Positions 15,487 to 36,642 of a stretch of DNA of 64,000 nt are shown here, one piece after another (positions within the stretch are counted from its first letter, which is position 1; each line of letters opens with the position of its first letter). The position numbers and the translations under genes are program-made. A model generated the notes under the pieces. That model did no database searches. It was given only the letters and a program-made list of their open reading frames with translations, and was not told the DNA's origin. Location of the stretch: the NCBI RefSeq assembly GCF_056746865.1, contig NZ_CM163382.1; one strand, written 5' to 3'.

Positions 15487-16133
15487 GCCTCTGCTCCGGG
15501 TTTGATCAGCATCAGACCACAGCCGAACGCGCGGCTTTTGCCATACCCCTGGCTCAGACGTTGCAGAAATAACCCGGGATCGGTGACCGTAAGCATCCCC
15601 GTATAATCCACGCTACTGAACTGGATCAGTTGCCGGGAGTTTTCCCGCCACAGTTGCTGTTGTCGGTAGGCATCAACCGAGGTATCCAGCAGTGTAAAAC
15701 CGCTTCTCTCCCCCTGCGCTGCCAGCCAGTCCAGCGCCGCCTGTTGTTGATGCAACCAGACATCACTTCCTTCCGCCTGCCCCCTCACCTGCCGTTTCGC
15801 CTCCATCAGCAGATCGTGGCGCTTGCCCGCTTTACAGATTGTTGGATTCGCCCGCAGGTTGAAACAAAGTTGTTGTCCGGTACGCAGCTCGGGCACAAAT
15901 GACCGGCATTCGATGGTGAACGTTTCACTTTCTGCCGGGCGTTCCTGCGACAGTACAAAAAAGCGAAACGCGCCCTGGAGTTCTTCCCGACGATAAAGAA
16001 ATTGCCTTTCTTTGCCGCCAGGGAAGAGATCCCACAGCCACTGATGCATCACATATTCCCCGCGATCCACCAGATGCAGCAACTGCGCAGGCGAAAGCTG
16101 GCCGGTATGTAAGGTTATTCTTGAGAGGTACAT
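15483..16133 (-). CDS. cas6e: Cas6e (CasE) crRNA endoribonuclease, non-K-12 I-E variant
   Basis: 216 aa from MYLSRITLHTGQ, with an AAGGAGG RBS upstream of the ATG at 16133. C-terminal G-rich motif GKSRAFGCGLMLIKP. The longer 262-aa track ORF was rejected. Confidence 0.85.
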
Positions 16134-16806
16134 GGTTCCTCCTTGCTGAGCCACGGCCCCTGATTGACGGTGCGTTCCCCAAACAACCATTGCTGACGAT
16201 TTAAAGGAACATCCCGGCGGCGCAATATTTTGCTCGCGACCAGGCCGTCGTGCTCCCCTTCCCACCAGCATTCATCCTGAAGTTTCGGGAGTGCGATTTT
16301 CAGGTCGTGGAAATGCTCCTGATACTGGTGATATGCGTTACGTAAAACATCAGACGCGTTGCCTTCAAGCAGTAACGGCGCAAGTGGTAATGCCAGCGGA
16401 TGACTTTTTCGCCCCAGATAAAGCGGAAAAACTGGATGGCGTAAACCGCCCTGCAACTGTTCGAGGCTGTAAGGCGCATCGGCTGTTGTTGCCACCGCCA
16501 CCATCCACCAGGCGTCGGTGTAGTAGTCGCGCCGGGAGATAATCGCGCTCAGAAGATCAGGGTCGCTCAACTCTTCGCGACGGCTGAAATAACGCGCTTT
16601 ACGCACCTCTTTTGGCATCTGGATTGTGTGATAATCCCGTGCCCAGCGCGGGTTACGGCTGGCGCAAACCACCAGTGAATAGTGGCGGTTAAACACGTTT
16701 AATCGTTCGGTATCATCACGCCGAATCCCTACCCCGGCAGCCAGCAGCCCCAGCAATGCTGAGCGCGAAGGCAGTTCATGGGTATGACGCACTTCGCCCG
16801 CTCCAA
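16115..16806 (-). pseudogene. cas5e: cas5e (casD) lacking its 5' end; homology stops at the island junction
   Basis: The frame reads ...GAGEVRHTHELPSRSALLGLLAAGVGIRRDD...PLYLGRKSHPLALPL (Cas5e hallmarks). The roughly 15-20 N-terminal codons, including the conserved WG segment, are missing. The TTG start at 16810 in the track is created by the junction. Confidence 0.8.
16792..16806 (+). repeat. Left island junction core (attL-like): CTTCGCCCGCTCCAA
   Basis: Identical 15-mer at 36704-36718. It lies inside the cas5e reading frame, where the reverse complement encodes GAGE. Confidence 0.75.
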
Positions 16807-16969
16807 ACAAACATTTCTCAACGTCTACTGAAGTCCATCAAATCCACGAATATCAAGCCTTTCAGCCATTTTCATAGCTTATTAACGTCTACTCACAACT
16901 ACCAGAATCTACACACAGAAGTGTATAGTAATGCGTATAGGACAAAATTTATTTTTTGGAGCTATACAC

Positions 16970-18184
16970 ATGCTGCTTTCAGACCTTGCTATCAGGCGCG
17001 CGAAGCCGAAAGAAAAGGCTTATACACTCAATGACGGTAACGGGCTTTCGTTACTCATTGAGCCGAACGGCTCGAAAGGGTGGCGACTACGTTACAGATT
17101 TGCAGGAAAGCCCAAAATGTTGTCGTTGGGCGTGTACCCTGATGTGTCTCTGTCTGATGCCAGAGCGGCAAGGGATGAGGCTAAAAGGCTTCTTGCTGGT
17201 GGTATAAATCCAAGTGAGGCCAGAAAAGCTCAAAAGCGAGAACAGGCGAGCAAATTTGGCAATACTTTTGAGGGTATCGCTCGCGAATGGTATGAAAAGC
17301 GGATCGACAGGTGGTCATCGTCATACGCCGAGGAAATGATCGAGACGTTTGAAAAAGACGTTTTTCCGTACATTGGCGGCAGGCCGATCGCAGAAATTAA
17401 GCCAATGGAGTTGCTTGCGGTTCTCTCCCGTCTTAATGACCGTGGGGCGACCGAAAAATTGCGTAAGGTTCGCCAGCGATGCGGCGAGGTGTTCCGGTAC
17501 GCAATCATCACCGGACGCGCTGAATATAACCCCGCACCAGATCTGGCAAGCGCATTTGCTCCACACAAAAAAGAGCATTATGCCTATTTGAAGGCCGACG
17601 AACTGCCGGAATTTTTCCGCGTTCTTAATACGTACACCGGAAGCCAGATCGTCAAGCTGGGTATGCGATTATTGATTCTGACAGGGCTCCGGCCAGGGGA
17701 ATTACGACAGGCAGAATGGCAGGAGATCGATTTTGATAATCGTTTGTGGGAAGTGCCTAAAGAACGAATGAAGATGCGCCGTCCTCATTGTGTGCCGCTT
17801 TCAGAACAGGCGATCGCTATTCTGGAACAGTTAAAACACATGACGGGGCAGTATCAGTTTATTTTCCCTGGTCGAATCCAGCACAGTAAGCCGATGAGTG
17901 AAATGGCGATGAACGTGCTTATTCGTCGTATTGGCTATTCTGGGCGCGTTACTGGTCATGGGTTCCGGCACACGATGAGCACGATTTTACATGAGCAGGG
18001 CTATAACACCGCGTGGATAGAAACGCAGCTTGCACACGTTGATAAGAACTCAATTCGTGGCACGTACAATCATGCGCAATATCTGGACGGGCGGCGCGAG
18101 ATGCTCCAGTGGTACGCCGACTATATGGACTCACTGGAACAGGGCGGCAACGTGGTGCATGGCAAGTTCGGAAAATGTGGATGA
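16970..18184 (+). CDS. int: P4-type tyrosine recombinase / integrase
   Basis: 404 aa from MLLSDLAIRRAKPKEKAYTLNDGNGLSLLIEPNGSKGWRLRYRF (typical P4-integrase N-terminus). Catalytic region HGFRHT...RGTYNH. GGAG RBS upstream. Confidence 0.92.
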   Translation: MLLSDLAIRRAKPKEKAYTLNDGNGLSLLIEPNGSKGWRLRYRFAGKPKMLSLGVYPDVSLSDARAARDEAKRLLAGGINPSEARKAQKREQASKFGNTFEGIAREWYEKRIDRWSSSYAEEMIETFEKDVFPYIGGRPIAEIKPMELLAVLSRLNDRGATEKLRKVRQRCGEVFRYAIITGRAEYNPAPDLASAFAPHKKEHYAYLKADELPEFFRVLNTYTGSQIVKLGMRLLILTGLRPGELRQAEWQEIDFDNRLWEVPKERMKMRRPHCVPLSEQAIAILEQLKHMTGQYQFIFPGRIQHSKPMSEMAMNVLIRRIGYSGRVTGHGFRHTMSTILHEQGYNTAWIETQLAHVDKNSIRGTYNHAQYLDGRREMLQWYADYMDSLEQGGNVVHGKFGKCG

Positions 18185-18312
18185 CTGGTTGAGTATACAG
18201 TAGTAGACTTTGAGCGACGAAAGAAAAAGCTGTGTCTAGGGTCGCTCCCGAAAAACCGTATACCTCGACGGGCTGGCACAGCCACTACAGTAGAGGACGC
18301 TGAGGTGTGCGT

Positions 18313-19110
18313 ATGATTGATATTCATGCCGAATTAAACGAATACAAAAAAGATTTTATTTCTTTACGTGAATTTCTTGAGGTCGTGCTTAAGGTCGCTG
18401 GTGATGATTATGATGTTTCAGATCTCATAACTTGGATACTCAGGAGAATAAGCGGAGAACATATCCGCCTGTACACAGTAAATGAATTTAAGCTGTTGGA
18501 ATCTTTTTGTAACCCGTATCGGGATGAATTTGATTATGATGTTCTTTATAGAAATCTGGATGCGGTTCGGAAACATGGTTGTTTACCTGGTGAGAGGGAT
18601 GAAAATGGTTTTCTGGTGTCCGGTTATTGGGAAGATCCCGAATTTGAGAACATTGGATTTATAAGGGGTGAAATTTTCGCAATTTTTCCCGATGTCCTTG
18701 ACGCGTTAACGAAGCTGGAAGGCGCTAACTCTTCTGAAAATGACGAGGTACAAGGACGCGATATTGAAAAGAAAGAGTTGCGTACAGAGGATGATTTATT
18801 ATCCCAAATCGCAATGCTGGAAAGAGAAAACGCAGAGTTAAGGGCAAGGATAGAGCAGTTAGAGCAAGAGCGCCCGATACACTTATATAAATACTGGGAT
18901 AAAGACCCATTAGCTAAGGCTATTGAGATTAGAAACAGAGAGTGGGCCAATTACGATCCAGAAAATGATTTTGCCACCAGGGGAAATCAAGAAGCGATAA
19001 CTAGGGAGCTTAAGCAGTGGGGGGCAAGTAATGCTCTTGCAACGCTCATAGAGAGGACTGCCTGCCCTATTAACCGAGACAACAGCCAAAAGAACGCAAA
19101 GCCGGATTAA
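18313..19110 (+). CDS. Hypothetical protein with a central acidic region and a coiled coil (LSQIAMLERENAELRARIEQLEQE)
   Basis: 265-aa ORF (ATG at 18313 after GAGGTG). Lower GC than the flanking int. I recognise no family motif. Confidence 0.6.
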   Translation: MIDIHAELNEYKKDFISLREFLEVVLKVAGDDYDVSDLITWILRRISGEHIRLYTVNEFKLLESFCNPYRDEFDYDVLYRNLDAVRKHGCLPGERDENGFLVSGYWEDPEFENIGFIRGEIFAIFPDVLDALTKLEGANSSENDEVQGRDIEKKELRTEDDLLSQIAMLERENAELRARIEQLEQERPIHLYKYWDKDPLAKAIEIRNREWANYDPENDFATRGNQEAITRELKQWGASNALATLIERTACPINRDNSQKNAKPD

Positions 19111-19125
19111 CGCACCATACCGCAT

Positions 19126-19270
19126 ACCCTGAGGGTGATTTACTGTTACCCTGAGGGTATTTTTTTATCTTCCCCGTCAATTTTACCATCACCCTTAGGG
19201 TAGATTTCCTCCCGATTACCATCACCCTTAGGGTTAATTTCCTTCCGGTAACCATTAGGCCTGAGGGTAT
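19126..19270. promoter_or_regulatory. Array of five CCYTNAGGGT palindromic motifs, including a ~30-bp direct repeat, upstream of alpA
   Basis: ACCCTGAGGGT at 19126 and 19148. TACCATCACCCTTAGGGT(A/T)(G/A)ATTTCCT(C/T)CC at 19184-19213 and 19217-19246. CCTGAGGGTAT at 19260. Confidence 0.5.
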
Positions 19271-19337
19271 GAAAATATTCGTTATTTCTGTGCCATGATT
19301 ACCTCGTCAAATTGAGTAGACGTTATGAGGTAAATAG

Positions 19338-19535
19338 ATGTCAAATACGCTTATTCGTTTAACAGAAGTTCAGCGTAGAACTGGATATAGCAAGGCATGG
19401 ATTTATCGCCTTATGGGGCAAGGTAAATTTCCTGCATCAGTTAAAATTGGCTCGCGAGCGATTGCTTTCGTTGAAAGTGAAATTGACGAATGGATCAATC
19501 AGCGTATTGCCGAATCACGCGGAACGGCTGCCTGA
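19338..19535 (+). CDS. alpA: AlpA/Vis-family small DNA-binding regulator or excisionase
   Basis: 65 aa: LIRLTEVQRRTGYSKAWIYRLMGQGKFPASVKIGSRAIAFVESEIDEWI, the classic AlpA HTH pattern. Confidence 0.85.
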   Translation: MSNTLIRLTEVQRRTGYSKAWIYRLMGQGKFPASVKIGSRAIAFVESEIDEWINQRIAESRGTAA

Positions 19536-19610
19536 TTAAATAGCTACGGGTTATTGCCCAAGCTATCCACTAGCAAATAAAAAGTAACTTAATTCGATAG
19601 CGGAGTTTTT

Positions 19611-20435
19611 ATGAAACTGCGAAAAACGCCCGTACAGGGGCAGGGCTTTGTTCGGCCTGAAAACCAGAATCTGCAAAATTTCGGCGAAATTATCCCGGTT
19701 ATTTCCGGCGTTATTGGCGGGCGTGAAGCCGCTGTTGTTAGCGCAAAAGCGTTACACAAAGCGTTGGGCGTGGGAAAAGACTTCTCTACATGGATCACTG
19801 ATCGTATCTCTGAATATGACTTCACCATTGGGTACGATTACTCAGTCCATAAAACAATTTCCCCAAATTTGGGGAAAAGCCCGAATGGCGAGGCTTACAG
19901 CAAGATTAAGCACTCTGGCAGACCCGGTAAAGACTATCTGTTAAGTGTCGGAATGGCGAAAGAACTGGCAATGATCGAACGCACCGAACAGGGCCGCGCC
20001 GTTCGTCAGTACTTCATCAAATGCGAGGAGGAGCTACACAAGGTAGCGCCTGTACGTTCCGCAGCGTTACGCCGGGAACTGAAAGCCCGTATCACCGTAG
20101 CCAGCTACTTTAAGCCAATGTGTGCCGCGCTGGAGGCGTACCGGGCTGAACTGGGTAAAAACACGCTCCAGCACCACTACACCACGGAAGCCAATATGCT
20201 GGCGCGTATCGTGCTGGGTGGCATGAATGCAAAACAGTGGGCGCAGGCGAACGGCATCACAGGCGAACCACGCGACCACATGAGCACGCTGCAGCTTGAG
20301 CACCTTTCTTACCTTGAGCAGAGCAATATCACGCTGATTGAGTTAGGCCAGGACTACCACCAGCGGAAAGCTGAATTAATTCGTCTTTCGCAACGCTGGT
20401 TAGCCCGCCGCATGGAGGTGAGCAGCCATGCGTAA
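19611..20435 (+). CDS. AntA/AntB-type phage antirepressor domain protein
   Basis: 274 aa. The N-terminal segment VVSAKALHKALGVGKDFSTWITDRISEYDF and LLSVGMAKELAMIERTEQGRAVRQYFIKCEEEL resemble AntA/KilAC antirepressor domains. Confidence 0.65.
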   Translation: MKLRKTPVQGQGFVRPENQNLQNFGEIIPVISGVIGGREAAVVSAKALHKALGVGKDFSTWITDRISEYDFTIGYDYSVHKTISPNLGKSPNGEAYSKIKHSGRPGKDYLLSVGMAKELAMIERTEQGRAVRQYFIKCEEELHKVAPVRSAALRRELKARITVASYFKPMCAALEAYRAELGKNTLQHHYTTEANMLARIVLGGMNAKQWAQANGITGEPRDHMSTLQLEHLSYLEQSNITLIELGQDYHQRKAELIRLSQRWLARRMEVSSHA

Positions 20436-20985
20436 ACCTGTCTTTTATGCCGGTCGCACTGAAATCTCTGTCATTAAATTCGATGACATTCAGGTGCGCA
20501 TAGTGAGTATCAACGGCGAGCCGTGGTTTGTTGGCGCTGATGTGTGTGCCGCGCTGGAAATCAGCAATGTTACTGATGCCGTTTCAGTTCTGGATAACGA
20601 TGAGGTAATGACCCTAGCTTTAACCGAGGGTCATTCCGGTAAGCGTGGTGGTGCCAGAAGCTGGAATGTTGTCTCTGAATCAGGTTTCTACAAACTGATC
20701 GCCCGCAGCCGTAAAGCTTCCACACCAGGCACATTTGCGCACCGTTTCAGTAACTGGGTATTCCGCGAGGTGATTCCTTCAATCCGCAAAACGGGGGGTT
20801 ATGGTGTTCCGTTTGCCATGCTGAATGATTTCAGTAAACGTCAGGCTGCATATCAACAGGAAGCCAGCAAACGCGGTTACAGGTTACAGCAATGCAAAGA
20901 GGCAAAAGATGCACTGGAACGAGAAGAGCGGGCGCTATGGCGTAAATATCAGCCTGATTTTCTGGAGGGTGAAAGCAATGTGTAA
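20428..20985 (+). CDS. Bro-N domain (prophage antirepressor-like) protein
   Basis: 185 aa. FDDIQVRIVSINGEPWFVGADVCAALEI...SESGFYKLIARSRK...FSNWVFREVIPSIRKTGGY is a typical Bro-N pattern. Overlaps the upstream gene by 8 nt. Confidence 0.75.
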   Translation: MRKPVFYAGRTEISVIKFDDIQVRIVSINGEPWFVGADVCAALEISNVTDAVSVLDNDEVMTLALTEGHSGKRGGARSWNVVSESGFYKLIARSRKASTPGTFAHRFSNWVFREVIPSIRKTGGYGVPFAMLNDFSKRQAAYQQEASKRGYRLQQCKEAKDALEREERALWRKYQPDFLEGESNV

Positions 20986-21153
20986 CGATCCGAACGTTAC
21001 AGAAAGAAAAAGCGCCCCGTTGCTGGATAACAGGCAAAACAAAGGCGACCGGGATAGGTCGCCAGTGGGAACAAAGGAAATCAAACGCATCGCCAACAAT
21101 GCCAGATTTGCGGCTGGTGGGCAATGTGATCAGTGTGCTGGCTTGCTGGTGGG

Positions 21154-21351
21154 CTATTCCTGCTCTTTAGCATCGCCATACTGCGATGTTTTCCAGGTAT
21201 GCGATTCCATTTTTGTGCGCCTGTACTCTTTTAAGAACTTCTCAAGGACAAACGCACATGGCGCAAATCTTTCCTGTTCTTGTTCGCTTACCGCATTTTT
21301 GCGTTGTTTTTTCCTGGATGAGGATAATTTCTTTAATGATTTGTCAGTCAT
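21154..21351 (-). CDS. Small basic hypothetical protein (65 aa); its C-terminus is paralogous to the neighbouring RHH protein
   Basis: ORF ending ...GDAKEQE. Weak RBS. Same size and tail as the 21409-21606 ORF. Confidence 0.4.
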   Translation of the reverse strand: MTDKSLKKLSSSRKKQRKNAVSEQEQERFAPCAFVLEKFLKEYRRTKMESHTWKTSQYGDAKEQE

Positions 21352-21408
21352 CGTAGATACCTGTAACCCTGTGCGCCACAGTTCACCGCACCACGGCGCT
21401 GGTGATGG

Positions 21409-21606
21409 TTACTCCTGCTCTTTGGCCTTCCGGCGCTGTTCATATTTTAATTTGCGTCCACAGGCATCTAAGACCCATGCGGAAAAATTAGCACTAGGAT
21501 TAGTTAATTTTTCTTGTTCAACACTGGCATCAATCCCATCTATAAGCTCGTGCGGGAATCGAATATTTTTCTTTGCTGATTTGTTGTTTGTGTTTCCGCT
21601 AGACAT
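21409..21606 (-). CDS. Ribbon-helix-helix (Arc/MetJ-like) DNA-binding protein; candidate island repressor
   Basis: 65 aa. NIRFPHELIDGIDASVEQEK...NFSAWVLDACGRKL fits a beta-strand/helix/helix RHH pattern. Good GAGGTG RBS. Divergent from the replication operon. Confidence 0.55.
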   Translation of the reverse strand: MSSGNTNNKSAKKNIRFPHELIDGIDASVEQEKLTNPSANFSAWVLDACGRKLKYEQRRKAKEQE

Positions 21607-21674
21607 TGGTACACCTCACTTAAATGGATTTGATGGGCGCACACAATACAGCAAAAAAAGTGAGAAGTTAAGTA

Positions 21675-21703
21675 TTGACATGTGCGCACACATGATTTTA
21701 ATC
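21675..21703 (+). promoter_or_regulatory. Putative sigma-70 promoter with a palindromic operator in the spacer, driving the icd-like/primase operon
   Basis: TTGACA (21675-21680), then the perfect palindrome TGTGCGCACA (21681-21690), then a TTAATC/TAATCT -10 candidate 17-18 nt downstream. Related GCGCACACA and TGTGCGCAAG copies lie nearby. Confidence 0.4.
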
Positions 21704-21810
21704 TGTGCGCAAGTTTGGGTTGCATTGCTCAAATTAAGCAACGCCCCGCAGTGCTCGCAACACATGCAGGGCGTCTAACCACCAACGATAGAAAGCGTAT
21801 CGAGGTAGCT

Positions 21811-22014
21811 ATGTTAAATCATACCACACACCCGCAAGGGCGGGACTCGCACAACCTGAATAAATACATCTGGCGTTTTATCGCCCTGAGCACCGCACAA
21901 CCACGCGTAATACACATCGAGGCCGCCAGCGAACAGGAAGCCCGTCAGCAATCCCCGGCTGGCTGCGTGATGGTATTTACTGCCCGCATCCGTCAGGGGG
22001 AATACTATGCGTGA
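21811..22014 (+). CDS. Small protein resembling satellite/prophage Icd-like cell division inhibitor family
   Basis: 67 aa from the ATG at 21811 (GAGGTA RBS). The YIWRFIALS...VIHIEAASEQEARQQSP pattern resembles Icd-like proteins of P4-type islands. This assignment is from memory only. Confidence 0.5.
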   Translation: MLNHTTHPQGRDSHNLNKYIWRFIALSTAQPRVIHIEAASEQEARQQSPAGCVMVFTARIRQGEYYA

Positions 22015-22264
22015 TGAACGATTTATTCTTCTGGAGCAAAAATTCAGTGAAGCGCCAAAAAATGAAATTGATGCTCTTTTGCATATCGCGAATATGCTAA
22101 AAGTAGCAACGTTCCTTATAGTTTCGAATCTGGAGCATGAAACGGCGTTAGATATACTGAACAGTGCTGTCGATTATTCTGAATATATTGCCGAGGATAA
22201 ATACAGGCAATTACCAGATTTGTTAGCCCATAAATATAAAGAAGAACCTCACACCGGGAAATAA
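22007..22264 (+). CDS. Hypothetical protein (85 aa); the gene is AT-rich
   Basis: ORF overlaps the upstream stop. Visibly lower GC than its neighbours. Confidence 0.5.
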   Translation: MRDERFILLEQKFSEAPKNEIDALLHIANMLKVATFLIVSNLEHETALDILNSAVDYSEYIAEDKYRQLPDLLAHKYKEEPHTGK

Positions 22265-22266
22265 AC

Positions 22267-22569
22267 ATGAAGAAGATTAAATTTACTGGCTTAAATGCCA
22301 GCGGACAGACTCACCCGAAAATCAGGATCGGGGATATTTTCCGGGATAAATATGGTGACAGCGTGGTTATTAATTCCGTGTATGAACGGCACATTACATA
22401 CCGCCGCGCAGGGTACGACTATGACTGTGTGATGCCCGTTCATCAGTTCCGGCGTGATTTTTCACTGGTATGTGCAGCACCACGCAGTAAGCCCACCAGT
22501 AAAGAGAAAGCACGGGCAAATATTCAGGTAATAAAGAACATGATTAACGCATTCAGGGGCAAGAAATGA
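22267..22569 (+). CDS. Hypothetical protein (100 aa), possibly DUF4222-like
   Basis: ORF tightly packed between neighbours. Its 3' end overlaps the primase start (ATGA). Confidence 0.5.
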   Translation: MKKIKFTGLNASGQTHPKIRIGDIFRDKYGDSVVINSVYERHITYRRAGYDYDCVMPVHQFRRDFSLVCAAPRSKPTSKEKARANIQVIKNMINAFRGKK

Positions 22570-24692
22570 AACGCGCACCGAATTTAAAGCACCAGCCGAA
22601 AGACAAAATGACGGAGGTGATTATCTTTGCGGGTAGTGATGCCTGGGCACATGCGAAAGAGTGGAGCGAATGGGCCGGAAAGCATATTGCGGCAGATGAT
22701 ACACATCCAGTTATTCTTGGACCGGAACAACTGGCGAGTCTGGCAGACACGCAAATCATCGACAAAGGGCGCTATTACGTGCGCGTTTATCGTGCTGGTG
22801 AAATATCAGAGCAGCACCTTACACAGATAGCGACACTGCTTGCAGTGGCGGGTGTGAAGGAGGCGCGTTGCTACCGCAGCTTTGTTGATCAGCAGCCGGA
22901 GGACTGGACACCGCGCATGGCTGGACTGAAGGATGATGCGGAACGCGGTAACAGTCTGGTGATCAACCTTCCGGCGAAGACAAATTTCACCGGAAATTAT
23001 GATGACGAATTAAAGCCTCGTGTTGAAAGTCGCGTCGATGGTGTTTTCTGGGTAACGCCCAAAGTGGACAAGCAGTCAGGCGAAATTATCCGGCCTGAGA
23101 CGTGGTTATGTTCTCCGCTTGAACTACTGGGAACAGGAACAATCGGCAAAGAGCATTACCGCGTGATGCGCTGGAAAAAACCAGCAAACCATGAGGTCAT
23201 TACAATGGCGGTCCCGTGCGGAGGCATTGGTGACCGTGACGGCTGGCGGTTGCTGAAAGACCACGGCCTTAACGTGACGACCAACGGCAAATACAGGGCT
23301 ATCTTGGCTGACTGGATGCAGTTAAGCGGAAACCATGAGGAATGGCAGTTAAGCACAACAACGGGGTGGCATTTTGGTGCGTACATCATGCCGGATGGTT
23401 CGATCATCGGTGAATCAGAGAAACCCATCCTGTTTACCGGAAAAACTGCCGCTGTTAATGGCTATTCCGTGGCGGGAACAGCGGAGGGCTGGCGCGATAC
23501 CGTGGCACGGCTGGCTGGTGGTAATCCGTCCATGATGCTGGGTGTGGCGGTATCGCTATCTGCACCATTAATCGGGCTGGTGGGTGCTGACGGCTTCGGG
23601 GTTCATCTTTTTGAGCAATCATCAGCAGGTAAAACCACCACACAGAACATTGCATCAAGTTTATGGGGAGAGCCGGACGCGCAACGGCTGACCTGGTACG
23701 GAACGGCGTTAGGTATCGCCAACGAGGCCGAAGCACATAATGACGGGCTGTTACCCCTGGATGAAATAGGCCAGGCCGGAAACGCACGGGAGGTGTCCAC
23801 GTCAGCCTATACGCTGTTTAACGGTTCCGGGAAATTACAGGGGGCGAAGGACGGCGGCAACAGGGAGATAAAACACTGGCGTACGGTGGCAATCAGCACC
23901 GGAGAAATGGACGTTGAAACATTCCTCAAAACGGAAGGGATAAAAATTAAAGCGGGACAGCTTGTCCGTCTGCTTAACGTACCGATGGAAAAGGCCTCGC
24001 AGTTTCACGAATACAGCACCGGAAAGGCGCACGCAGACGCGTTAAAAGATGCCTGGACAGAAAATCACGGGGCGGCAGGTCGTGAGTGGGTTAAATGGCT
24101 GGCAGGCCACCAGCAGGAGGCAAAGGACGCGGTAAGGGCATGTCGCGAGCGGTGGCGCAACCTGATACCGGAGAGCTACGGCGAGCAGGTTCACCGTGTG
24201 GGGGAAAGATTCGCCGTACTGGAGGCCGCGCTTGTGCTTTCCGGTCATGTTACAGGCTGGGATGTTCAGGCGTGCCGTGATGCAGTTCAGCATAACTTTA
24301 ATGCCTGGGTGAAGGAATTCGGCACGGGCAACAGGGAATTTAAACAGATGGTTGAACAGGCTGAGGCGTTTTTGTCGTCGTTCGGGTTCAGTCGATACCT
24401 TCCCTATCCAAACAGCGACGAGCGTGATTTACCGATTAAAGACCTTGCCGGATACAGAAAGGGGAGTATCAGAAACGAAGATGACGAGTTCCGTTTTTAC
24501 ACGTTCCCGCATGTGTTTGAGGGTGAGATAGCACAGGGATTTAATCCGTCTCACTTTGCCCGCGCGTTGAGTGCAGCCGGAATGCTGGAAGCGGGAGGCG
24601 ACCGCCGTTACAAGAAAAAGGCGCTCGGCAGGATTGGCGGGAAGCAACATATTTTTTACGTGCTGATGTTCCAGCCTGAAGCAGAAGATTAA
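22566..24692 (+). CDS. Satellite/prophage replication protein: primase-helicase with P-loop (DUF927-type)
   Basis: 708 aa. Walker A FEQSSAGKTTTQ and Walker-B-like LLPLDEIGQ. The size and its position just before the iterons match P4-alpha / PICI Pri-Rep-like proteins. Confidence 0.8.
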   Translation: MKRAPNLKHQPKDKMTEVIIFAGSDAWAHAKEWSEWAGKHIAADDTHPVILGPEQLASLADTQIIDKGRYYVRVYRAGEISEQHLTQIATLLAVAGVKEARCYRSFVDQQPEDWTPRMAGLKDDAERGNSLVINLPAKTNFTGNYDDELKPRVESRVDGVFWVTPKVDKQSGEIIRPETWLCSPLELLGTGTIGKEHYRVMRWKKPANHEVITMAVPCGGIGDRDGWRLLKDHGLNVTTNGKYRAILADWMQLSGNHEEWQLSTTTGWHFGAYIMPDGSIIGESEKPILFTGKTAAVNGYSVAGTAEGWRDTVARLAGGNPSMMLGVAVSLSAPLIGLVGADGFGVHLFEQSSAGKTTTQNIASSLWGEPDAQRLTWYGTALGIANEAEAHNDGLLPLDEIGQAGNAREVSTSAYTLFNGSGKLQGAKDGGNREIKHWRTVAISTGEMDVETFLKTEGIKIKAGQLVRLLNVPMEKASQFHEYSTGKAHADALKDAWTENHGAAGREWVKWLAGHQQEAKDAVRACRERWRNLIPESYGEQVHRVGERFAVLEAALVLSGHVTGWDVQACRDAVQHNFNAWVKEFGTGNREFKQMVEQAEAFLSSFGFSRYLPYPNSDERDLPIKDLAGYRKGSIRNEDDEFRFYTFPHVFEGEIAQGFNPSHFARALSAAGMLEAGGDRRYKKKALGRIGGKQHIFYVLMFQPEAED

Positions 24693-24716
24693 CTTCCCTG
24701 TGTGAGGTAAAAAGTT

Positions 24717-24841
24717 GCGGGTTATGCGGGTTATCCTGTGCATAAGTTAATTAACTGAATGATTAAAAAGGAAATTAATAACCCGCACGTAACCCGCAAA
24801 ACGGCAGTTATAACCCGCAAATGTGCGATTGTAACCCGCAA
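24717..24841. repeat. Iteron cluster 1 (ori/crr-like): 2 tandem TGCGGGTTA, an AT-rich spacer, then 4 inverted TAACCCGCA spaced 11/21/21 bp
   Basis: TGCGGGTTA at 24717 and 24726. TAACCCGCA at 24780, 24791, 24812 and 24833. The AT-rich core is 24745-24779. The cluster starts 25 bp after the primase stop. Confidence 0.7.
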
Positions 24842-24902
24842 AATTTCACTGTAAGAGTGTAAACAAGCGTAACTATCACGTTAAAACCGGAGAACAAACA
24901 GC

Positions 24903-25328
24903 ATGACGGCGCAAATATCAGCTTACGGGCGGCTGGTGGCTGACCCGCAGTTAAAGACCACCAGCAAGGGCACACAAATGGCGATGGCGAGTATGGCGGT
25001 CCCCCTTCCATGCAATCAGACAGATGACGGAACGGCGACGATGTGGTTATCCGTCCTGGCGTTTGGCAGACAGGCTGACGCACTGGCAAAACACCACAAA
25101 GGCGAACTGGTGAGCGTGGCCGGTAACATGCAGGTGAGCTGGTGGACGGGCCAGAACGGCGAAACGAGGCAGGGATGGCAGGTTATCGCAGACAGCGTAA
25201 TCAGTGCGCGAACGGCGCGACCGGGCGGCAAAAAAGGCCAGCAGGGGCAGGCTACTGATGCACTGAACAGGGCAAAGCAACAGACAGGCCAGCACGATGA
25301 TCCGTACGGGGACGGGATACCGTTTTAA
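24903..25328 (+). CDS. ssb: Single-stranded DNA-binding protein (OB fold) with SSB-like acidic C-terminal tip
   Basis: 141 aa. YGRLVADPQLKTTSKGTQMA... is an OB-fold pattern. A G/Q-rich linker leads to the C-terminus DDPYGDGIPF (compare E. coli SSB, ...DDDIPF). Confidence 0.7.
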   Translation: MTAQISAYGRLVADPQLKTTSKGTQMAMASMAVPLPCNQTDDGTATMWLSVLAFGRQADALAKHHKGELVSVAGNMQVSWWTGQNGETRQGWQVIADSVISARTARPGGKKGQQGQATDALNRAKQQTGQHDDPYGDGIPF

Positions 25329-25411
25329 TTCACAACAGCGAACAGAGTAATTACCCAGTGCGCCGTAAAGCCCCGTCCTTCAGGTCGGGGATATAAGGCG
25401 CGGTTTTCCAC

Positions 25412-25828
25412 CTAACTAGGTGTTTGCTGTTGTTCAATGTATTGGCGGATGATGGATATTGGCGCACCTCCGCAGCTACTGGCAAAATAGCTGGGACTCC
25501 ATAAAACGCCTTTGTAGTAATACCTGACTGCAATATCTGGTCGATCTCGTCGCAATAATCTACTCGATACGCCCTTGAGACTGTTCACCAGGGTGGATAT
25601 CGCCAATTTGGGAGGATAGTTAATTAGCAGGTGAACGTGATCTCGTTCTCCATCCATTTCAACCAGTTCAGCTTCAAAATCAGCACATACACTTGAAAAG
25701 TAAGTGCGTAGTTTTTCTATTGCGTCATGGTCAAAAATCTGGCGTCGGTACTTGGTAACAAAGACCAGGTGAACGTGCATCAGGAAGACACAGTGCCTTC
25801 CACGTCGGATATCGGTTTCTTTTTTCAT
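25412..25828 (-). CDS. tnpA: IS200/IS605 Y1 (HUH) transposase TnpA
   Basis: 138 aa from MKKETDIRRGRHCVFLMHVHLVFVTKYRR, with HUH motif HVHLL and catalytic-Tyr region SPSYFASSCGG. The longer 178-aa track ORF was rejected. Confidence 0.9.
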   Translation of the reverse strand: MKKETDIRRGRHCVFLMHVHLVFVTKYRRQIFDHDAIEKLRTYFSSVCADFEAELVEMDGERDHVHLLINYPPKLAISTLVNSLKGVSSRLLRRDRPDIAVRYYYKGVLWSPSYFASSCGGAPISIIRQYIEQQQTPS

Positions 25829-25850
25829 AGGCCAAAGTATAATTTGGCAT

Positions 25851-27059
25851 ATGAAACGACTACAAGCTTTCAAATTCCAGTTAAGACCAAATGGAAAACA
25901 GGAGCGTGAAATGAGGCGCTTCGCGGGCGCATGTCGTTTCGTTTTCAATCGTGCTCTGGCGCTTCAGAATGAGAATCATGAGGCCGGGAACAAATATATT
26001 TCTTATGCAAAGATGACTTCCTGGCTGGTTGAATGGAAAAATGCTACTGAAACGCAATGGCTTAAAGATTCTCCCTCACAGCCATTGCAGCAGTCACTGA
26101 AAGACCTTGAGCGAGCCTACAAAAATTTCTTTCAGAAGCGTGCCGCTTTTCCCCGATTCAAAAAGCGGGGACAGCATGATGCATTCCGCTATCCGCAGGG
26201 TGTTAAGCTCGATCAGGAAAACAGCCGTATTTTTCTGCCGAAACTGGGCTGGATGCGCTACCGGAACAGCCGTCAGGTCACGGGTGTTGTGAAAAATGTC
26301 ACTGTCAGCCAGTCCTGCGGTAAGTGGTACATCAGTATTCAGACAGAAAGTGAAGTATCAACTCCGGTTCACCCTTCAGCATTAATGGTCGGGCTGGATG
26401 CTGGCGTGGCTAAACTCGCCACGCTGTCAGATGGCACGGTCTTTGAGCCTGTAAACAGTTTTCATAAAAACCAGAAGAAGCTGGCGAGACTTCAGCGCCA
26501 GTTAAGCCGCAAGGTTAAATTCAGCAACAACTGGCAGAAGCAGAAACGCAAAATACAGCGACTGCATTCCCGTATCGCAAATATCCGCAGGGACTACCTT
26601 CACAAAGTCACAACGACCATCAGCAAAAACCACGCAATGATAGTCATTGAGGATTTGAAGGTCAGCAACATGTCAAAGTCAGCCTCGGGTACGGTCAGCC
26701 AGCCGGGGCGCAATGTCCGGGCAAAATCAGGTTTAAACCGTTCGATACTGGATCAGGGCTGGTATGAAATGCGCCGTCAGCTTGAGTACAAGCAGCTCTG
26801 GTGTGGCGGTCAGGTGCTTGCTGTTCCGCCAGCGTACACAAGCCAGCGTTGCGCGTGCTGTGGTCATACAGCGAAAGAAAATCGCCTGTCACAAAGTCAA
26901 TTCAGATGCCAGGTATGTGGATATACAGCGAACGCCGATGTAAACGGCGCTCGTAACATTTTAGCGGCGGGGCACGCCGTTCTTGCCTGTGGAGGGATGG
27001 TGCAGTCAGGCCGCCCGTTGAAGCAGGAACCCACCGAAATGATTCAGGCGACAGCCTGA
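25851..27059 (+). CDS. tnpB: TnpB (OrfB_IS605) RuvC-like RNA-guided nuclease
   Basis: 402 aa. RuvC triad contexts GLDAGV, VIEDLK and ADVNGARNI, plus a zinc finger CACCGH...CQVCG. All appear intact. Confidence 0.9.
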
Positions 27060-27264
27060 ACGTAGCAGGAATCCACGTCCTTCAGGGCGTGGAGGATGTC
27101 AAATATCAATGCGACGACTGGAATGTTCCAGGAAGGCACAGAGGCCACCGAAGCAACCGGATAATTTAGAAGACCTGAAACGGTCGCTTAAACGCACTGA
27201 AAAAGAAATGGGGATAGATGGGATCGGGAAATCAGTATGGCGTAACTACCAGAAGTAAGCACAG

Positions 27265-27289
27265 AGCCGGAGCAATCCGGCTTTTTTTT
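27265..27289 (+). terminator. Rho-independent terminator
   Basis: AGCCGG-AGCAAT-CCGGCT hairpin followed by T8. Confidence 0.6.
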
Positions 27290-27389
27290 GGCTGAAATCA
27301 ATCAATCTGTTTTTGTGATAGAAATATATTTATCTACCACTTTTTTCGATCAATAATGTGCATAATTTAGTCATTAAGAGGAAATTGCT

Positions 27390-27596
27390 GTGAATTGTAT
27401 TAACGACCTGAACACAGGCGATGTCAGAGGTGGTTCCGTTCATCTGGATGCACAGACCGTGATGCGCCTTAAGCAGTACAGAATCGACCATGTGAACAAT
27501 CACCCTGATCAGCCATTACCAGGCGTGGCGCAGATTGTCAGACATGCCGTAAACGCCTGGCTTAATCAGAATGGTTTTGCATCGGGGGGTGAGTAA
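27390..27596 (+). CDS. Small RHH-like protein (68 aa, GTG start) preceding the giant-protein operon
   Basis: GAGGA RBS. SVHLDAQTVMRLKQYRIDH...GVAQIVRHAVNAWL fits a strand-helix-helix pattern. Confidence 0.45.
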   Translation: MNCINDLNTGDVRGGSVHLDAQTVMRLKQYRIDHVNNHPDQPLPGVAQIVRHAVNAWLNQNGFASGGE

Positions 27597-27692
27597 TGAA
27601 TCGCTGGTACAGCATCAAAGCAGAGGGACGCCAATGTTATCTAACTCAGGTTTTATGAATTCTGACTCCCGATTCAAAATAGGAGGTTACTA

Positions 27693-30224
27693 ATGCCAGT
27701 CGTACCAACAGTATCCGGACGTCAGGTTGAGAGCCGTGGAGTTCAGTCAGCAGGCTTGCAGACGTTTTCTCAGCCAGGTATTGGTGATGCTTTTGTTCGG
27801 GCAGGGGCAGAGGCAATTGATGTTTTTGGTCAGGCAAAACAGCGTGCCAATATTGCCTTGATTCAGGAGGCATCCCTTAAACTCAGTCAGATAGGCAGTG
27901 ATCTGCTGAATAATCCTGAAACAGGATTGCTTAACCTGAAAGGGAAAAATGCTATTGGAAAAGGCCATGAGTATACACAGCAGTTTGATGCTCAGATCGA
28001 ACAACTGGCTATGTCGCTGCCGGATGAACAGGCTCGTAATGCTTTCATGCAGCAGGCGCAGCAGCAGCGTATTCAGTTCGCTACGCAGGCCGGGAGGTAC
28101 GAGATAGGGCAAATAAATGCCTACGAAGAAGGCCAGTTTCAGGCGACACTGCTGAATAATGGTAAAAATGCCTCAGCATTATATGGCGACAACGCAGCAT
28201 ACATATTGGCTAATACGCAAACTTTCCAGCAAATTGAGGATTACGGTATTGCGCATGGCTGGAGCGACGAGCAAATCCAGGCCAAGAAAATCGAGTTTAA
28301 AGAAGCAACAGCAAAAGCAACTGCTCAAAATGCTATTGGAGCAAACTATCTTCAGGTAAGACAGCAAAATGGCGAGTTAAGCGATACTGCTGCTGGATCT
28401 CGCCGTGCTGTAGCAGATAGTGGCTCTTCCGATCGTACCCGCGGTATACGCAACAATAACCCCGGCAATCTTGAATACAGCAAAACTAATCCGTGGATTG
28501 GGCAGACTGGTGATGATGGTCGCTTTGCCAAATTCGAAACCCCTGAACACGGTATTCGCGCGCTTGGTCGCAATTTGCTGTCGTATCAGCGTCAGGGTTA
28601 TGACACCATCAGCGAAATAATTAATCGCTGGGCACCGGCCAGTGATGATAATAAAACTGATGCTTATATACGGGCAGTATGTGCTCAGCTCGGTGTAACT
28701 CCTGACCAGCCGCTTGACGCATCAAATCCTGACACACTGAAATCTCTGTGCAAAGCAATTATTCATCATGAGCAAGGCAGTCAGCCGTACAGTGATCAGC
28801 AATTGGCCGCTGGCGTTAGTGCCGCACTGGGGCTTTCTCAGCTACCGACAAAAAATAAACGTTATACCGGTGTAGCCTGGTTCGATGCTTTAAGTGAATC
28901 AGATCAGGCCAGCGTGTTGCGACAGACGGATGCATTAGCCAGACAGCAGCAGGCTGAATATAGAACGATGCTCGAAAGCCGGGTTCGCGATGCAACGGCT
29001 GCGTATATGCGTGGCGTTGAATTTCCTAACCCGCCTGGTGAGGGTGAGTTCATTGCTGCTTATGGTGTCAGAGAAGGAAACCTGCGATATACCGAGTTCA
29101 GAAATTTGCAGATCGCCGGACAGTATATAGGCTCTTTCCGCAACATGCCGACAAGCAGCATTACCGCATATGTTGAGCAATTACGCCCGGATACTGGTGA
29201 GACAGGGGAGGGGTATGCGTCTCGTGCGGAGTTATTCGACCGGGTATCGGCGGCAGCCACGAAGGTAATAACCCAGAGGCAGAATAATCCGTTTAGTGCA
29301 GCGGTGGAAATCGGAGCCTATAAGCCGATCACCAGCAACAACCCTGACGACATCACTGCCGAGGTGGCTAACCGTTTCTCGTCGCAGGAAAGCTTACGCG
29401 CGTTGGGAATTAATGCCCCACTCCTCAACAGTGAAGAGGCGGCTGCGCTGGCACAGCAGGTGCGCGGCACTCAGAACGTTGACCAGACAATTAAACTGTT
29501 GCAGAGCATGGGGGAGAAGCTGCCTGCGCCAGCAATACGGCAGGTGGCATCTGTAATTGCTCCGAACAGTGCGGCAACAGCCTATTCTGCGCTGCTGCTG
29601 GGCACGCCGGATAACCAGTACGACAACACCAGGCCGACGATCCCATATAGTCAGTTCATCGGGTATAAGCCGACGATGAACAAGTACGACGTTGCAAAGG
29701 TTATTCTTTCCGGCGACCAACTACTGAATCCGACGAAGGCCATGAAGAATGCGGGCATAACTCCGGTACAGTTGCCGAGCGAAGATAAGATGAAAGACGC
29801 TTTCGACGAACAGGTAGGTAATGCATTTGCCCGTAACCCGCAGTTACGCCAGATCAGTTATAGCCTTTTCAAAGCCGCTTACGCAGGAATAGCTTATCAA
29901 TCTGGTGATGCCTCTACGGTAAGAACCAGTATGCCTGATACAGACATTGTAGCTGATGCCGTGAAGTATGCTACTGGCGGTATATACAATGGTTTTAATG
30001 GCGGCGACGTTGTAATGCCTTTTGGCATGGATAAATCTACTTTCAAAGATCGCTATACCACATCTGCGAAACAAGCACTGAAAGATGCCGGACTTAACGT
30101 AAATGCAGTGTCAAATTTCACGCCAGTTAATATCGGCAATAACCGGTATCGGCTTGTAAATGGTAGCGGACGCTGGGCAACAGATCCCAGAACCAATAAA
30201 GCTATTGTCGTGAGGGTTGAATAA
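27693..30224 (+). CDS. Large protein (843 aa); candidate phage internal-virion/ejection-type protein with an RNNNPGN-motif central domain
   Basis: Strong AGGAGG RBS. N-terminus MPVVPTVSGRQVESRGVQSAGLQ. Q/A-rich helical regions. GIRNNNPGNLEY at nt 28449-28469. No nucleotide-binding motifs seen. The function call is tentative. Confidence 0.75.
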   Translation: MPVVPTVSGRQVESRGVQSAGLQTFSQPGIGDAFVRAGAEAIDVFGQAKQRANIALIQEASLKLSQIGSDLLNNPETGLLNLKGKNAIGKGHEYTQQFDAQIEQLAMSLPDEQARNAFMQQAQQQRIQFATQAGRYEIGQINAYEEGQFQATLLNNGKNASALYGDNAAYILANTQTFQQIEDYGIAHGWSDEQIQAKKIEFKEATAKATAQNAIGANYLQVRQQNGELSDTAAGSRRAVADSGSSDRTRGIRNNNPGNLEYSKTNPWIGQTGDDGRFAKFETPEHGIRALGRNLLSYQRQGYDTISEIINRWAPASDDNKTDAYIRAVCAQLGVTPDQPLDASNPDTLKSLCKAIIHHEQGSQPYSDQQLAAGVSAALGLSQLPTKNKRYTGVAWFDALSESDQASVLRQTDALARQQQAEYRTMLESRVRDATAAYMRGVEFPNPPGEGEFIAAYGVREGNLRYTEFRNLQIAGQYIGSFRNMPTSSITAYVEQLRPDTGETGEGYASRAELFDRVSAAATKVITQRQNNPFSAAVEIGAYKPITSNNPDDITAEVANRFSSQESLRALGINAPLLNSEEAAALAQQVRGTQNVDQTIKLLQSMGEKLPAPAIRQVASVIAPNSAATAYSALLLGTPDNQYDNTRPTIPYSQFIGYKPTMNKYDVAKVILSGDQLLNPTKAMKNAGITPVQLPSEDKMKDAFDEQVGNAFARNPQLRQISYSLFKAAYAGIAYQSGDASTVRTSMPDTDIVADAVKYATGGIYNGFNGGDVVMPFGMDKSTFKDRYTTSAKQALKDAGLNVNAVSNFTPVNIGNNRYRLVNGSGRWATDPRTNKAIVVRVE

Positions 30225-35040: not shown

Positions 35041-35354
35041 TGACGAGAGATAAAATTGAATATATTGCTTCTCTTAAATATGAAGCTGAGAAATGGAGAA
35101 GGATTGGCGGGTGGGGAACATTAATATCACTCTCTGCTTTACTTATAGACTCCTGGTTCAGACATATTGATGCAGCATCATTACTTTTTGAATCAGCAGT
35201 ACTTGGTGGATTCATTTGCTGTTGGGGTGGTAATTATGATCGGGCGTCCAAACATAAGAGAGAACTTGACGCGATATGTTTTGCTTTATTCGGTAAGGAT
35301 TACGAAAGTTCTGACCTTGATATAATTGAATTCAACAAAACGGAACTATCGTGA
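35040..35354 (+). CDS. Small predicted two-TM membrane protein (104 aa), last gene of the operon
   Basis: TGATG overlap with the upstream gene. Hydrophobic segments WGTLISLSALLIDSWF and SAVLGGFICCWGG. AT-rich. Confidence 0.55.
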   Translation: MTRDKIEYIASLKYEAEKWRRIGGWGTLISLSALLIDSWFRHIDAASLLFESAVLGGFICCWGGNYDRASKHKRELDAICFALFGKDYESSDLDIIEFNKTELS

Positions 35355-35362
35355 CATGTCAC

Positions 35363-35387
35363 AGGCCGCTTTCGCGGCCTTGTTTTT
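35363..35387 (+). terminator. Rho-independent terminator of the giant-protein operon
   Basis: AGGCCGC-TTTC-GCGGCCT hairpin followed by TGTTTTT, 9 nt after the stop codon. Confidence 0.65.
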
Positions 35388-36058: not shown

Positions 36059-36212
36059 TGCGGGTTATTTTGGGGCGTTTGCGGGTTATTTGGGATGTTT
36101 TGCGGGTTATGTGATGCTTGAATAATGAACAGTGTATTTTGCAACATATTGATACTAAAGAACAAAAAATAGTTAGCATACTAAGATAACCCGGTAACCC
36201 GCATAACCCGCA
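36059..36212. repeat. Iteron cluster 2: 3 TGCGGGTTA spaced 21/21 bp, an AT-rich spacer, then tandem inverted TAACCCGCA copies; a mirror image of cluster 1
   Basis: TGCGGGTTA at 36059, 36080 and 36101. TAACCCGG (degenerate) at 36187 and TAACCCGCA at 36195 and 36204. The AT-rich core is about 36121-36186. Confidence 0.65.
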
Positions 36213-36618: not shown

Positions 36619-36642
36619 ATGTGTATAGAAATGTGTATAGAA
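36619..36642. repeat. Tandem 12-bp repeat ATGTGTATAGAA x2; candidate integrase arm-type sites
   Basis: Exact tandem copies 62-85 bp left of the right core. GTGTATAG also occurs at 16921-16928, and inverted (CTATACAC) at 16962-16969, next to the int start at the other end. Confidence 0.35.

Follow-up and report, generated by a model that had tools for sequence, protein, structure and literature searches.

A phage-inducible chromosomal island-like element of Escherichia coli with an exchangeable cassette of podovirus ejection-protein homologues

What kind of mobile element carries the integration, regulatory and replication genes of a phage satellite together with an operon of giant proteins, and no genes for a capsid or for packaging? 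The question is raised by a 64,000-nucleotide stretch of an Escherichia coli chromosome (contig NZ_CM163382.1, assembly GCF_056746865.1; hereafter the window), in which a sequence-only reading had flagged 8.4 kb as a satellite-like core. The flagged segment is only the left 42% of an island of 19,925 bp (16793-36717) bounded by direct repeats of the 3'-end of the tRNA-Gly gene glyU. The 13-bp exact repeat TTCGCCCGCTCCA, which corresponds to the last 13 nt of glyU, has plus-strand copies at 16793 and 36705 and no others in the window, and because these repeats bound both, the insertion sequence (IS) at 25355-27102 and the giant-protein operon at 27693-35040 lie inside the island. In other E. 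coli, the matching 8.6 kb begins within glyU, downstream of actS. Our comparisons indicate that the backbone belongs to the lineage of phage-inducible chromosomal islands (PICIs) and capsid-forming PICIs (cfPICIs) and is not a relative of P4, the capsid/packaging module having been replaced by a podovirus ejectosome module. We give a probability of roughly 60% to the reading that the island is an element of this lineage specialised on temperate Uetakevirus podoviruses, the epsilon15/phiV10 group, for which it would supply ejection proteins.

The slot where morphogenesis genes normally sit had been described as holding an IS element and the giant-protein operon. Both are present, but the operon is not a foreign occupant of the slot; it is the helper-derived virion module of the island, homologous to Uetakevirus gp15-gp17 and made up as follows.

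27625-27692, plus strand: 3'-terminal remnant of a core-protein gene of the 'T7 gp14-family' (prophage matches start at 27625, under gp14-family genes)
27693-30224, plus strand: epsilon15 gp15 homologue, 843 aa, an internal core/ejection protein that includes a transglycosylase-like region (phrog_992, 4e-289)
30224-32284, plus strand: epsilon15 gp16 homologue, 686 aa (phrog_1145, 2e-136)
32284-35040, plus strand: epsilon15 gp17 homologue (phrog_684, 2.5e-295), 918 aa from the ATG at 32284 (925 aa from the GTG at 32263 in the list of open reading frames, ORFs)
35040-35380, plus strand: small ORF of 104 aa (no family match) and operon terminator at 35363-35380 (terminator scan)

The three giant proteins match PHROG families end to end, and the DNA homology of the cassette to Salmonella phage epsilon15 detected by blastn spans the trio, with its limits at the start of gp15 (27692) and the stop of gp17 (35042). 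The 843-aa protein is 79% identical to epsilon15 gp15 over its full length and the gp17 homologue is 89% identical to its counterpart; the 686-aa protein is 83% identical to gp16 over the N-terminal 281 aa and 74% over the C-terminal 207 aa, with an unrelated centre of ~200 aa. This replaced middle (residues ~273-489; window 31040-31690) contains the HExxH motif HEALH. A homologue search with it was empty, a search of PDB sequences gave one insignificant match and a single-sequence AlphaFold model was of low confidence (pLDDT 53). The gp16 middle of a Pectobacterium island discussed below (locus L012, 12535-15033) matches a DarB-like antirestriction PHROG (6e-8). In epsilon15 and phiV10, the three genes lie in the late operon, downstream of the tail-tube genes and of the 'internal virion proteins' gp13/gp14, and from their position and annotation we take epsilon15 gp15-gp17 to be the counterparts of T7-type internal core/ejection proteins. 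The homology to epsilon15 gp15-gp17 and phiV10 gp18-gp20 is full length and collinear and extends to the gene order and the downstream terminator; unlike in the phages, where the genes sit in a late operon, the trio in the window stands alone behind PICI regulators, with the gp16 middle replaced. The gp14-family remnant of ~68 nt, which is matched by E. coli prophages, appears to be the left scar of the capture of the cassette, and hundreds of E. coli genomes match the gp15 5' region adjoining a gp14-family core-protein gene. On the right side, the 104-aa ORF is 82% identical to an ORF in a prophage (L005), and downstream of the operon a stretch of 59 bp shows 97% identity to the late-operon terminator region of phiV10. 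Terminators at 27263-27284 and 35363-35380 bracket a unit of a 68-aa gene, the three giant genes and the 104-aa ORF, upstream of which a promoter scan found no sigma-70-like promoter. Profile scans of the island found no holin, endolysin or tail families, and the transglycosylase-like region of gp15 belongs to a core protein, not to a lysis gene. The view that there are no recognisable virion genes therefore fails on the giant operon, although capsid and packaging genes are truly absent.

The genes around this cassette, as well as the attachment sites, are given below.

16793-16805, plus strand: attL core, the last 13 nt of glyU (exact repeat of 36705-36717; aligned with the glyU attL of fS10a and with an intact cas5e)
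16970-18184, plus strand: P4-Int-like tyrosine integrase of three domains (PF13356 Arm-DNA-bind_3, PF22022 Phage_int_M, PF00589 Phage_integrase, E 1e-26 to 1e-33; phrog_1)
18229-18296, plus strand: int-alpA RNA motif, downstream of int and upstream of the coiled-coil gene (Rfam RF02996, 46.9 bits; gathering score 35.8)
18307-19110, plus strand: 267-aa coiled-coil protein (no family above threshold)
19338-19535, plus strand: AlpA regulator/excisionase (PF05930, 2.4e-19)
19611-20435, plus strand: AntA-type antirepressor-like gene (PF08346, 7e-21; PHROG anti-repressor family)
20428-20985, plus strand: Bro-N-type antirepressor-like gene (PF02498, 5e-18; PHROG anti-repressor family)
21154-21351 and 21409-21606, minus strand: two divergent 65-aa genes (phrog_21027; the second is DUF3950/YlcI-YnfO)
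21811-22014, plus strand: Icd-like gene (phrog_6196)
22007-22264, plus strand: 85-aa ORF between the Icd-like and DUF4222 genes
22267-22569, plus strand: DUF4222 gene (PF13973)
22566-24692, plus strand: DUF927 primase-helicase (pri-rep), 708 aa (PF06048, 1e-46; phrog_1139 'DNA primase', 4e-174)
24717-24839, no strand assigned: iteron cluster 1, six copies of the 8-mer GCGGGTTA/TAACCCGC (2 forward and 4 reverse)
24903-25328, plus strand: SSB (PF00436; phrog_44)
25355-27102, tnpA on the minus and tnpB on the plus strand: IS200/IS605 element (PF01797, PF01385, PF07282)
27103-27284, plus strand: 3' remnant of a PerC-family regulator with its terminator at 27263-27284 (alignment to the PerC of L001; phrog_994; terminator scan)
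27390-27596, plus strand: 68-aa lead-in gene of the module slot (phrog_4934, 2e-31)
36060-36211, no strand assigned: iteron cluster 2, same 8-mer (3 forward and 2 reverse copies), just inside attR
36700-36717, plus strand: attR, an 18-bp copy of the glyU 3' end (repeat search and alignment)

Every gene of the order proposed from sequence alone, from int to SSB, is present at the place given, with no ribbon-helix-helix fold shown for the divergent pair, and the interpretation of the locus as a satellite-type island is supported. Its layout had been called P4/PICI-type; the backbone is that of PICIs and cfPICIs and not P4-like, the primase being 83-86% identical to those of the capsid-forming PICIs of E. 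coli EDL933 and ETEC4085 and 62% identical to that of another PICI, EcCIMP1. The EDL933 element (L020), which we take to be EcCIEDL933, and the ETEC4085 element (L021) share with the window the Icd-DUF4222-DUF927-SSB-PerC string, including an identical Icd-like/85-aa/DUF4222 order leading into the primase (a segment, 21811-22569, in which phrog_24341 is also matched), as well as the iteron 8-mer and its arrangement. Their SSB proteins are 67-96% identical to that of the window and the primase-SSB segment is 88-92% identical at the DNA level. The slot that holds the gp15-gp17 homologues in the window is occupied in these cfPICIs by the genes for the major capsid protein, prohead protease, portal, connector/head-closure proteins, HNH, terS and terL. 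The 68-aa lead-in protein is identical in islands carrying other cassettes, and in another lineage of PICIs the DNA of its gene precedes a gene for a prohead-protease/capsid fusion. The ETEC4085 cfPICI is embedded in a prophage terL gene, an arrangement known from helper-embedded PICIs (PMC10111431). E. coli TW10828 (L028, 4718-22318) harbors nested PICI-like elements, of which the second, integrase-led one lies inside the prohead-protease/capsid fusion gene of the first.

Among the other backbone features, the divergent 65-aa gene pair is kept in relatives, and the 267-aa coiled-coil protein is variable among them (66% identical in OkiPb01688). A 33-bp tandem repeat lies directly upstream of alpA (19183-19255; 2.2 copies, 87% match) and could be a regulatory binding site. 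Iteron cluster 1, located between the primase gene and ssb, is the probable origin of replication. The 8-mer and its arrangement are common to all relatives compared, and the position of cluster 2 is conserved at the right end. The two clusters are ~11 kb apart in the window and contiguous in the EDL933 cfPICI; elsewhere they bracket SSB, regulators and the module slot, and the split cluster 2 could be a recombination site for module exchange.

Placing the island in a class depends on which components it carries. Of the PICI core components as used in SatelliteFinder (PMC10085698), it has an integrase at one end with flanking att repeats, AlpA downstream of int in the same orientation and a primase with adjacent origin iterons; it lacks lysis and tail genes and is within the ~10-20 kb range (19.9 kb in the window, 19.2-19.5 kb for intact copies). 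Components for packaging or capsid hijacking (terS, ppi/rpp, capsid morphogenesis), on the other hand, were not found in Pfam, PHROGs and NCBIfam scans. Judged from this component count, three of five, the island would be a Type C element in the SatelliteFinder scheme, as EcCIMP1 is; the authors of the scheme treat Type C elements, which have only int, alpA and primase and number >6,000, as uncertain (PMC10085698). The profile scans, which the earlier reading had called for and which covered the island ORFs and the three genes missing from the window copy, revealed no psu, sid, delta, epsilon, terS, rpp, ppi or capsid gene, in agreement with the absence of sid/delta/psu, terS, cos and capsid genes first noted from the sequence alone, and no cos-like similarity to Uetakevirus terS regions was found. 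The 138-aa gene of intact copies was considered as a terminase on the basis of a weak N-terminal match to a 'terminase' PHROG (2e-10), but Pfam gave nothing and it is a candidate only. None of the defining cfPICI genes (its own major capsid protein, prohead protease, portal, connector/adaptor, terS and terL) is present between 16793 and 36717. Nor does the island look like a Uetakevirus prophage: tblastn searches of the window island and its sister islands with terS/terL, portal, major capsid protein, gp11-14, tailspike and lysis proteins were empty, and the same query set finds these proteins in 12 of 13 species-representative loci that encode a gp15 relative.

The closest published element is EcCIMP1 (Pick, Stadel & Raivio, ISME J 2025, PMC11773190), which is a PICI of 19,963 bp from E. 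coli MP1 and has the temperate podovirus vB_EcoP_Kapi1 as its helper. EcCIMP1 excises only when Kapi1 is present, requires both alpA and int for excision and transfer and is transferred by Kapi1 at low frequency; its authors noted the absence of capsid and terminase genes, scored it as a Type C PICI and remarked on the resemblance of EcCIMP1_017-019, encoded downstream of the primase, to 'DNA transfer proteins' and to proteins of Kapi1 (PMC11773190). In our analysis, four genes of this block match PHROGs of P22-type gp14, gp7, gp20 and gp16. EcCIMP1 and the window island are both ~20 kb in size, lack capsid and terminase genes and share int (66% protein identity), AlpA (78%), AntA (74%), DUF4222, an Icd-like gene, PerC and the DUF927 primase (62%), with PerC and DUF4222 at different positions, and in both a block of podovirus ejection genes lies directly downstream of the primase. 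They differ in the attachment site (tRNA-Thr for EcCIMP1, glyU/yicC-dinD for the window type), in the primase, which has a zinc-ribbon/Toprim N-terminus in EcCIMP1, in the absence from EcCIMP1 of SSB, ProQ and GCGGGTTA iterons and in the cassette itself, which is P22-type and not Uetakevirus gp15-17, the two blocks being non-homologous. If an EcCIMP1-like PICI is defined as a DUF927-primase PICI backbone with podovirus ejection genes and without capsid or terminase, the window island is one, both by backbone homology and by the podovirus ejection-gene block downstream of its primase. An ejectosome module and cassette swapping are not described by the EcCIMP1 authors (PMC11773190), and in the literature searched on satellites with ejection proteins, epsilon15 or Uetakevirus we found no description of an ejectosome module as such. 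The PICMI elements of Vibrionaceae (PMC10803314) also lack capsid-remodelling genes and are packaged as concatemers, as we infer for the window island from its half-helper size; they differ in taxon, in their virulent helpers and in having no virion genes, whereas the window element gives ~40% of its length to virion genes. The design has barely been described before, with EcCIMP1 as its closest published element and the cfPICIs as its closest relatives by sequence.

Comparison of sister islands shows that the ejection trio is an exchangeable cassette that tracks phage type. For example, the islands at glyU in F11 and OkiPb01688 are otherwise 98-99% identical but carry a trio of 837 (or 935), 600 and 824 aa, which is 91-99% identical to phiV10 gp18, gp19 and gp20 and 27-73% identical to the window trio; a small gene flanking this phiV10-type cassette has the same protein accession as in a phiV10-like prophage of SF-468. 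At another site, yicC-dinD, GF4 carries the window-type cassette behind a different integrase and Z1323CEC0012 carries a third trio (873, 565 and 849 aa), for which the best phage relatives reach only 45-49% identity. Islands at glyU and yicC-dinD thus share replication and cassette modules but have different integrases, and at least three precise cassette replacements have occurred within one backbone. The gp15 gene is itself mosaic, its first ~1.5 kb being common to cassette types at 98% DNA identity. The epsilon15-type cassette has 75-79% DNA identity to every known phage or prophage compared. Between the window and GF4, the primase genes show a single synonymous difference (synonymous divergence, dS, of 0.002) and the cassette genes a dS of 0.03-0.16, with a ratio of nonsynonymous to synonymous divergence (dN/dS) of 0.04-0.19; cassette genes compared with phage copies give a dN/dS of 0.04-0.25, and the three giant ORFs are intact in every island copy inspected. 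The cassette is under purifying selection. The earlier proviso that the element might be a widespread non-mobilisable island does not apply: the element occupies glyU, yicC-dinD and a secondary site in cas5e, with exchangeable integrases.

Among 5,426 complete E. coli genomes, 44 (0.8%), from humans, poultry, pigs and cattle, have the PerC-68aa-gp15 junction, a count matched by the ~45 genomes that hold the primase at >=95% identity. In a survey of one genome per species, 12 of the 13 loci encoding a gp15 relative are complete Uetakevirus-like prophages, with portal, major capsid protein and gp11-14 upstream. The remaining locus, from Pectobacterium zantedeschiae, carries genes for a Toprim-DUF927 primase (61%), SSB (62%) and homologues of gp15, gp16 and gp17 (49, 42 and 73%) but none for a capsid, and represents the same design in another genus. 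Prophages of helper type also exist in E. coli, with one complete epsilon15-like and one phiV10-like example. A Uetakevirus prophage in USMARC-50748 (L003, 5977-6091) has an annotated pseudogenic tRNA-Gly between terL and the portal gene; it was considered as an att decoy and dismissed, its sequence being unrelated to the glyU core.

The sequence-only reading had left open a new flavour of satellite or a decayed one, and the window copy is indeed partly decayed. Alignment to fS10a by blastn shows that the IS200/IS605 element replaces 983 bp holding a ProQ/FinO gene, the 138-aa gene and the 5' part of PerC. The PerC-family gene is annotated as frameshifted in every intact island inspected (L001, 24478-24703; L017, L018, L023 and L029), which could mean that they share a pseudogene, that the frameshift is programmed or that the annotation is at fault. 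On the attL side, the remainder of the tRNA-Gly is replaced by cas5e sequence, and a tRNA scan found no tRNA in the window. The left flank is a type I-E cas5e gene (16115-16810) that has lost ~17 N-terminal codons; the junction lies at 16792-16798, with the crossover within a 7-bp identity, CTTCGCC, common to cas5e and the tRNA-Gly end. In ETEC1747, a related island at glyU is accompanied by another copy, which lies in inverted orientation within cas5e, has both of its junctions and splits the cas operon into cas3-casA-casB-cas7 and cas5e-cas6e-cas1-cas2. The window pairs the cas5e left junction with the glyU-side right flank (a glycoside hydrolase family 15 gene and ETT2), an arrangement that would fit an inversion by recombination between two inverted island copies. 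A 120-kb deletion as the origin of the left junction was ruled out by gene orientation and by the complete second cas5e insertion in ETEC1747. The window copy is probably defective, because the IS removed ProQ, the 138-aa gene and part of PerC and because the left end is rearranged in cas5e; at the same time, the second insertion at the secondary site in cas5e shows that the integrase lineage was recently active. To the right of the island, the family 15 glycoside hydrolase gene beside attR (36908-38559) is split into ORFs of 437 aa and 113 aa and is probably frameshifted in the window, a single gene of ~1.6 kb being annotated in other strains (L001, L018). It is followed by a low-GC region (33-40%, ~39150-56900), the first ORF of which (249 aa, 39150-39899) lies where fS10a has eivF, a regulator of ETT2 type III secretion, and then sctC, ETT2 being the usual neighbour of glyU.

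How would such an element exploit a podovirus? In the reading we favour, a helper Uetakevirus, infecting or induced, would switch on AlpA, upon which the island would excise and replicate from its iterons and its activator-dependent late-type operon would be transcribed. The gp15-gp17 homologues would be built into helper-made procapsids as an internal core, and the island DNA would be packaged by the headful machinery of the helper, probably as a dimer, because an intact island of 19.2-19.5 kb is about half of the 39.1-39.7-kb helper genome and a dimer would fill the head. In the next cell, the island-encoded proteins would form the injection channel, and the exchangeable gp16 middle may act as an injected effector. 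A bolder formulation, to which we give somewhat less than even odds, is that of a distinct PICI class of temperate-podovirus satellites that supply an ejectosome and neither build nor resize capsids. Such satellites would carry a phage-type-matched cassette in the capsid slot of cfPICIs, captured repeatedly from different podovirus lineages, and a gp16 effector (DarB-like in Pectobacterium, the HExxH segment here) that may aid establishment of the satellite DNA in the next cell, for instance by countering restriction or the exclusion imposed by a resident helper. Several points weigh against the favoured scenario. The helper dependence of the window-type island is extrapolated from EcCIMP1 and the cfPICIs, and the window copy lacks three genes that all intact copies have. 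No packaging determinant was found, terS and rpp being absent from the profile scans, and an intact island compared by blastn with epsilon15, phiV10 and a Uetakevirus prophage of E. coli showed no pac- or cos-like similarity to terS regions. A pac or cos site copied from the helper was discarded as an explanation, sensitive blastn matching only the cassette, the terminator and a weak Bro-N stretch. In T7- and P22-like assembly, core/ejection proteins are loaded into procapsids before DNA, which precludes setting island copies aside for heads filled with island DNA. The helper produces gp15-17 itself, and the selective benefit of the cassette is unexplained; the 5,426 E. coli genomes contain no near-identical phage partner for the epsilon15-type gp16 and gp17, and the transfer frequency of EcCIMP1 is very low (PMC11773190).

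Other explanations have therefore to be weighed, of which the one we would take most seriously, while regarding it as unlikely, is that the cassette acts as DNA. Nearly 8 kb of homology would allow recombination with helper concatemers, the cointegrate being packaged from the helper pac site by homology-facilitated transduction, and repeated gene conversion by phage alleles would keep the ORFs intact. Cloned phage fragments raise plasmid transduction by P22 and SPP1, epsilon15 and phiV10 encode RecET-like recombinases, and the island has no detectable packaging signal or terS-like gene. The phiV10-type cassette is 97-99% identical to phiV10 proteins, with flanking small genes matching a resident-type prophage, and frequent exchange with phages is indicated by the gp15 mosaic and by the higher dS of the cassette (0.03-0.16) than of the backbone (0.002). 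Any phage segment would serve for homology, however, and three independent lineages (Uetakevirus gp15-17 in E. coli and in Pectobacterium, P22-type gp14-16 in EcCIMP1) captured the ejection block alone, with boundaries at gene ends; the cassette occupies a regulated module slot preceded by PerC and the 68-aa gene. For the epsilon15 type, a DNA identity of 75-79% is poor for homologous recombination, yet dN/dS is 0.04-0.09. It is rather unlikely, too, that the cassette is protective cargo without a role in transfer, its resident ejection proteins blocking or misdirecting the DNA entry of phages of the same type. Such superinfection exclusion would be in line with the contribution of EcCIMP1 to the superinfection immunity of Kapi1 lysogens, which does not lower helper titre (PMC11773190), but no gene has been mapped for that effect (PMC11773190). 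Anti-phage cargo is common in satellites, and a type-specific blocker would also be expected to match the phage type. PADLOC, on the other hand, gave no defence-family match for the cassette and its neighbours, three full-length giant virion proteins up to 99% identical to those of phages are unlike known exclusion proteins, and the absence of a sigma-70-like promoter together with the terminator after PerC suggests activator-dependent late expression rather than expression in uninduced cells.

The damage to the window copy invites the simpler view of an inert chimera, in which a decayed PICI backbone and a prophage fragment were joined by illegitimate or homologous recombination and the satellite life cycle is gone. 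The IS with its 983-bp deletion and the rearranged left end speak for it, as do the frameshifted annotation of PerC in intact relatives, the uncertain standing of Type C elements with only int, alpA and primase (PMC10085698) and a prevalence of just 0.8%. We consider it improbable in view of an architecture kept in 44 genomes from four kinds of host, three intact giant ORFs whose dN/dS between island copies is low, a backbone that has undergone at least three precise replacements of its cassette, exchanged integrase modules and sites, a second copy at a secondary site indicating recent integrase activity in the lineage, and the functional, analogous EcCIMP1 (PMC11773190). Finally, it is barely credible that the island is a satellite of P4 type from which sid, delta and psu have been lost. 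It shares with P4 a P4-type integrase, an AlpA-type regulator, the antirepressor concept and a primase-helicase with one iteron in two separated clusters, reminiscent of P4, in which ori and crr are two such clusters. Beyond equivalents of int and alpA, however, none of the defining P4 features (psu, sid, delta, epsilon, the alpha primase and cos) was found, the primase is of another family, DUF927, close to that of the cfPICIs, and the virion genes come from podoviruses and not from P2-like myoviruses.

Known satellite strategies include capsid resizing (P4, SaPIs, PLE), redirection of packaging (terS, Rpp) and the building of own capsids (cfPICIs). In the genomes compared, the present design is recurrent, under selection and matched to phage type, and the function of the ejection proteins for the satellite is one that we infer. 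The ejectosome module offers an explanation for the unassigned genes EcCIMP1_017-019, and where such an island has entered cas5e, a type I-E CRISPR-Cas operon is interrupted by a satellite. Work on the system is feasible, since both phiV10 and epsilon15 are characterised phages and complete genomes with intact islands are available (fS10a, F11, GF4). If the favoured reading is true, part of the >6,000 'Type C' PICI-like elements would be reclassified, and a satellite that gives 40% of its genome to the injection proteins of its helper, swapped by phage type, would point to entry into the next cell as the contested step between satellite and phage.

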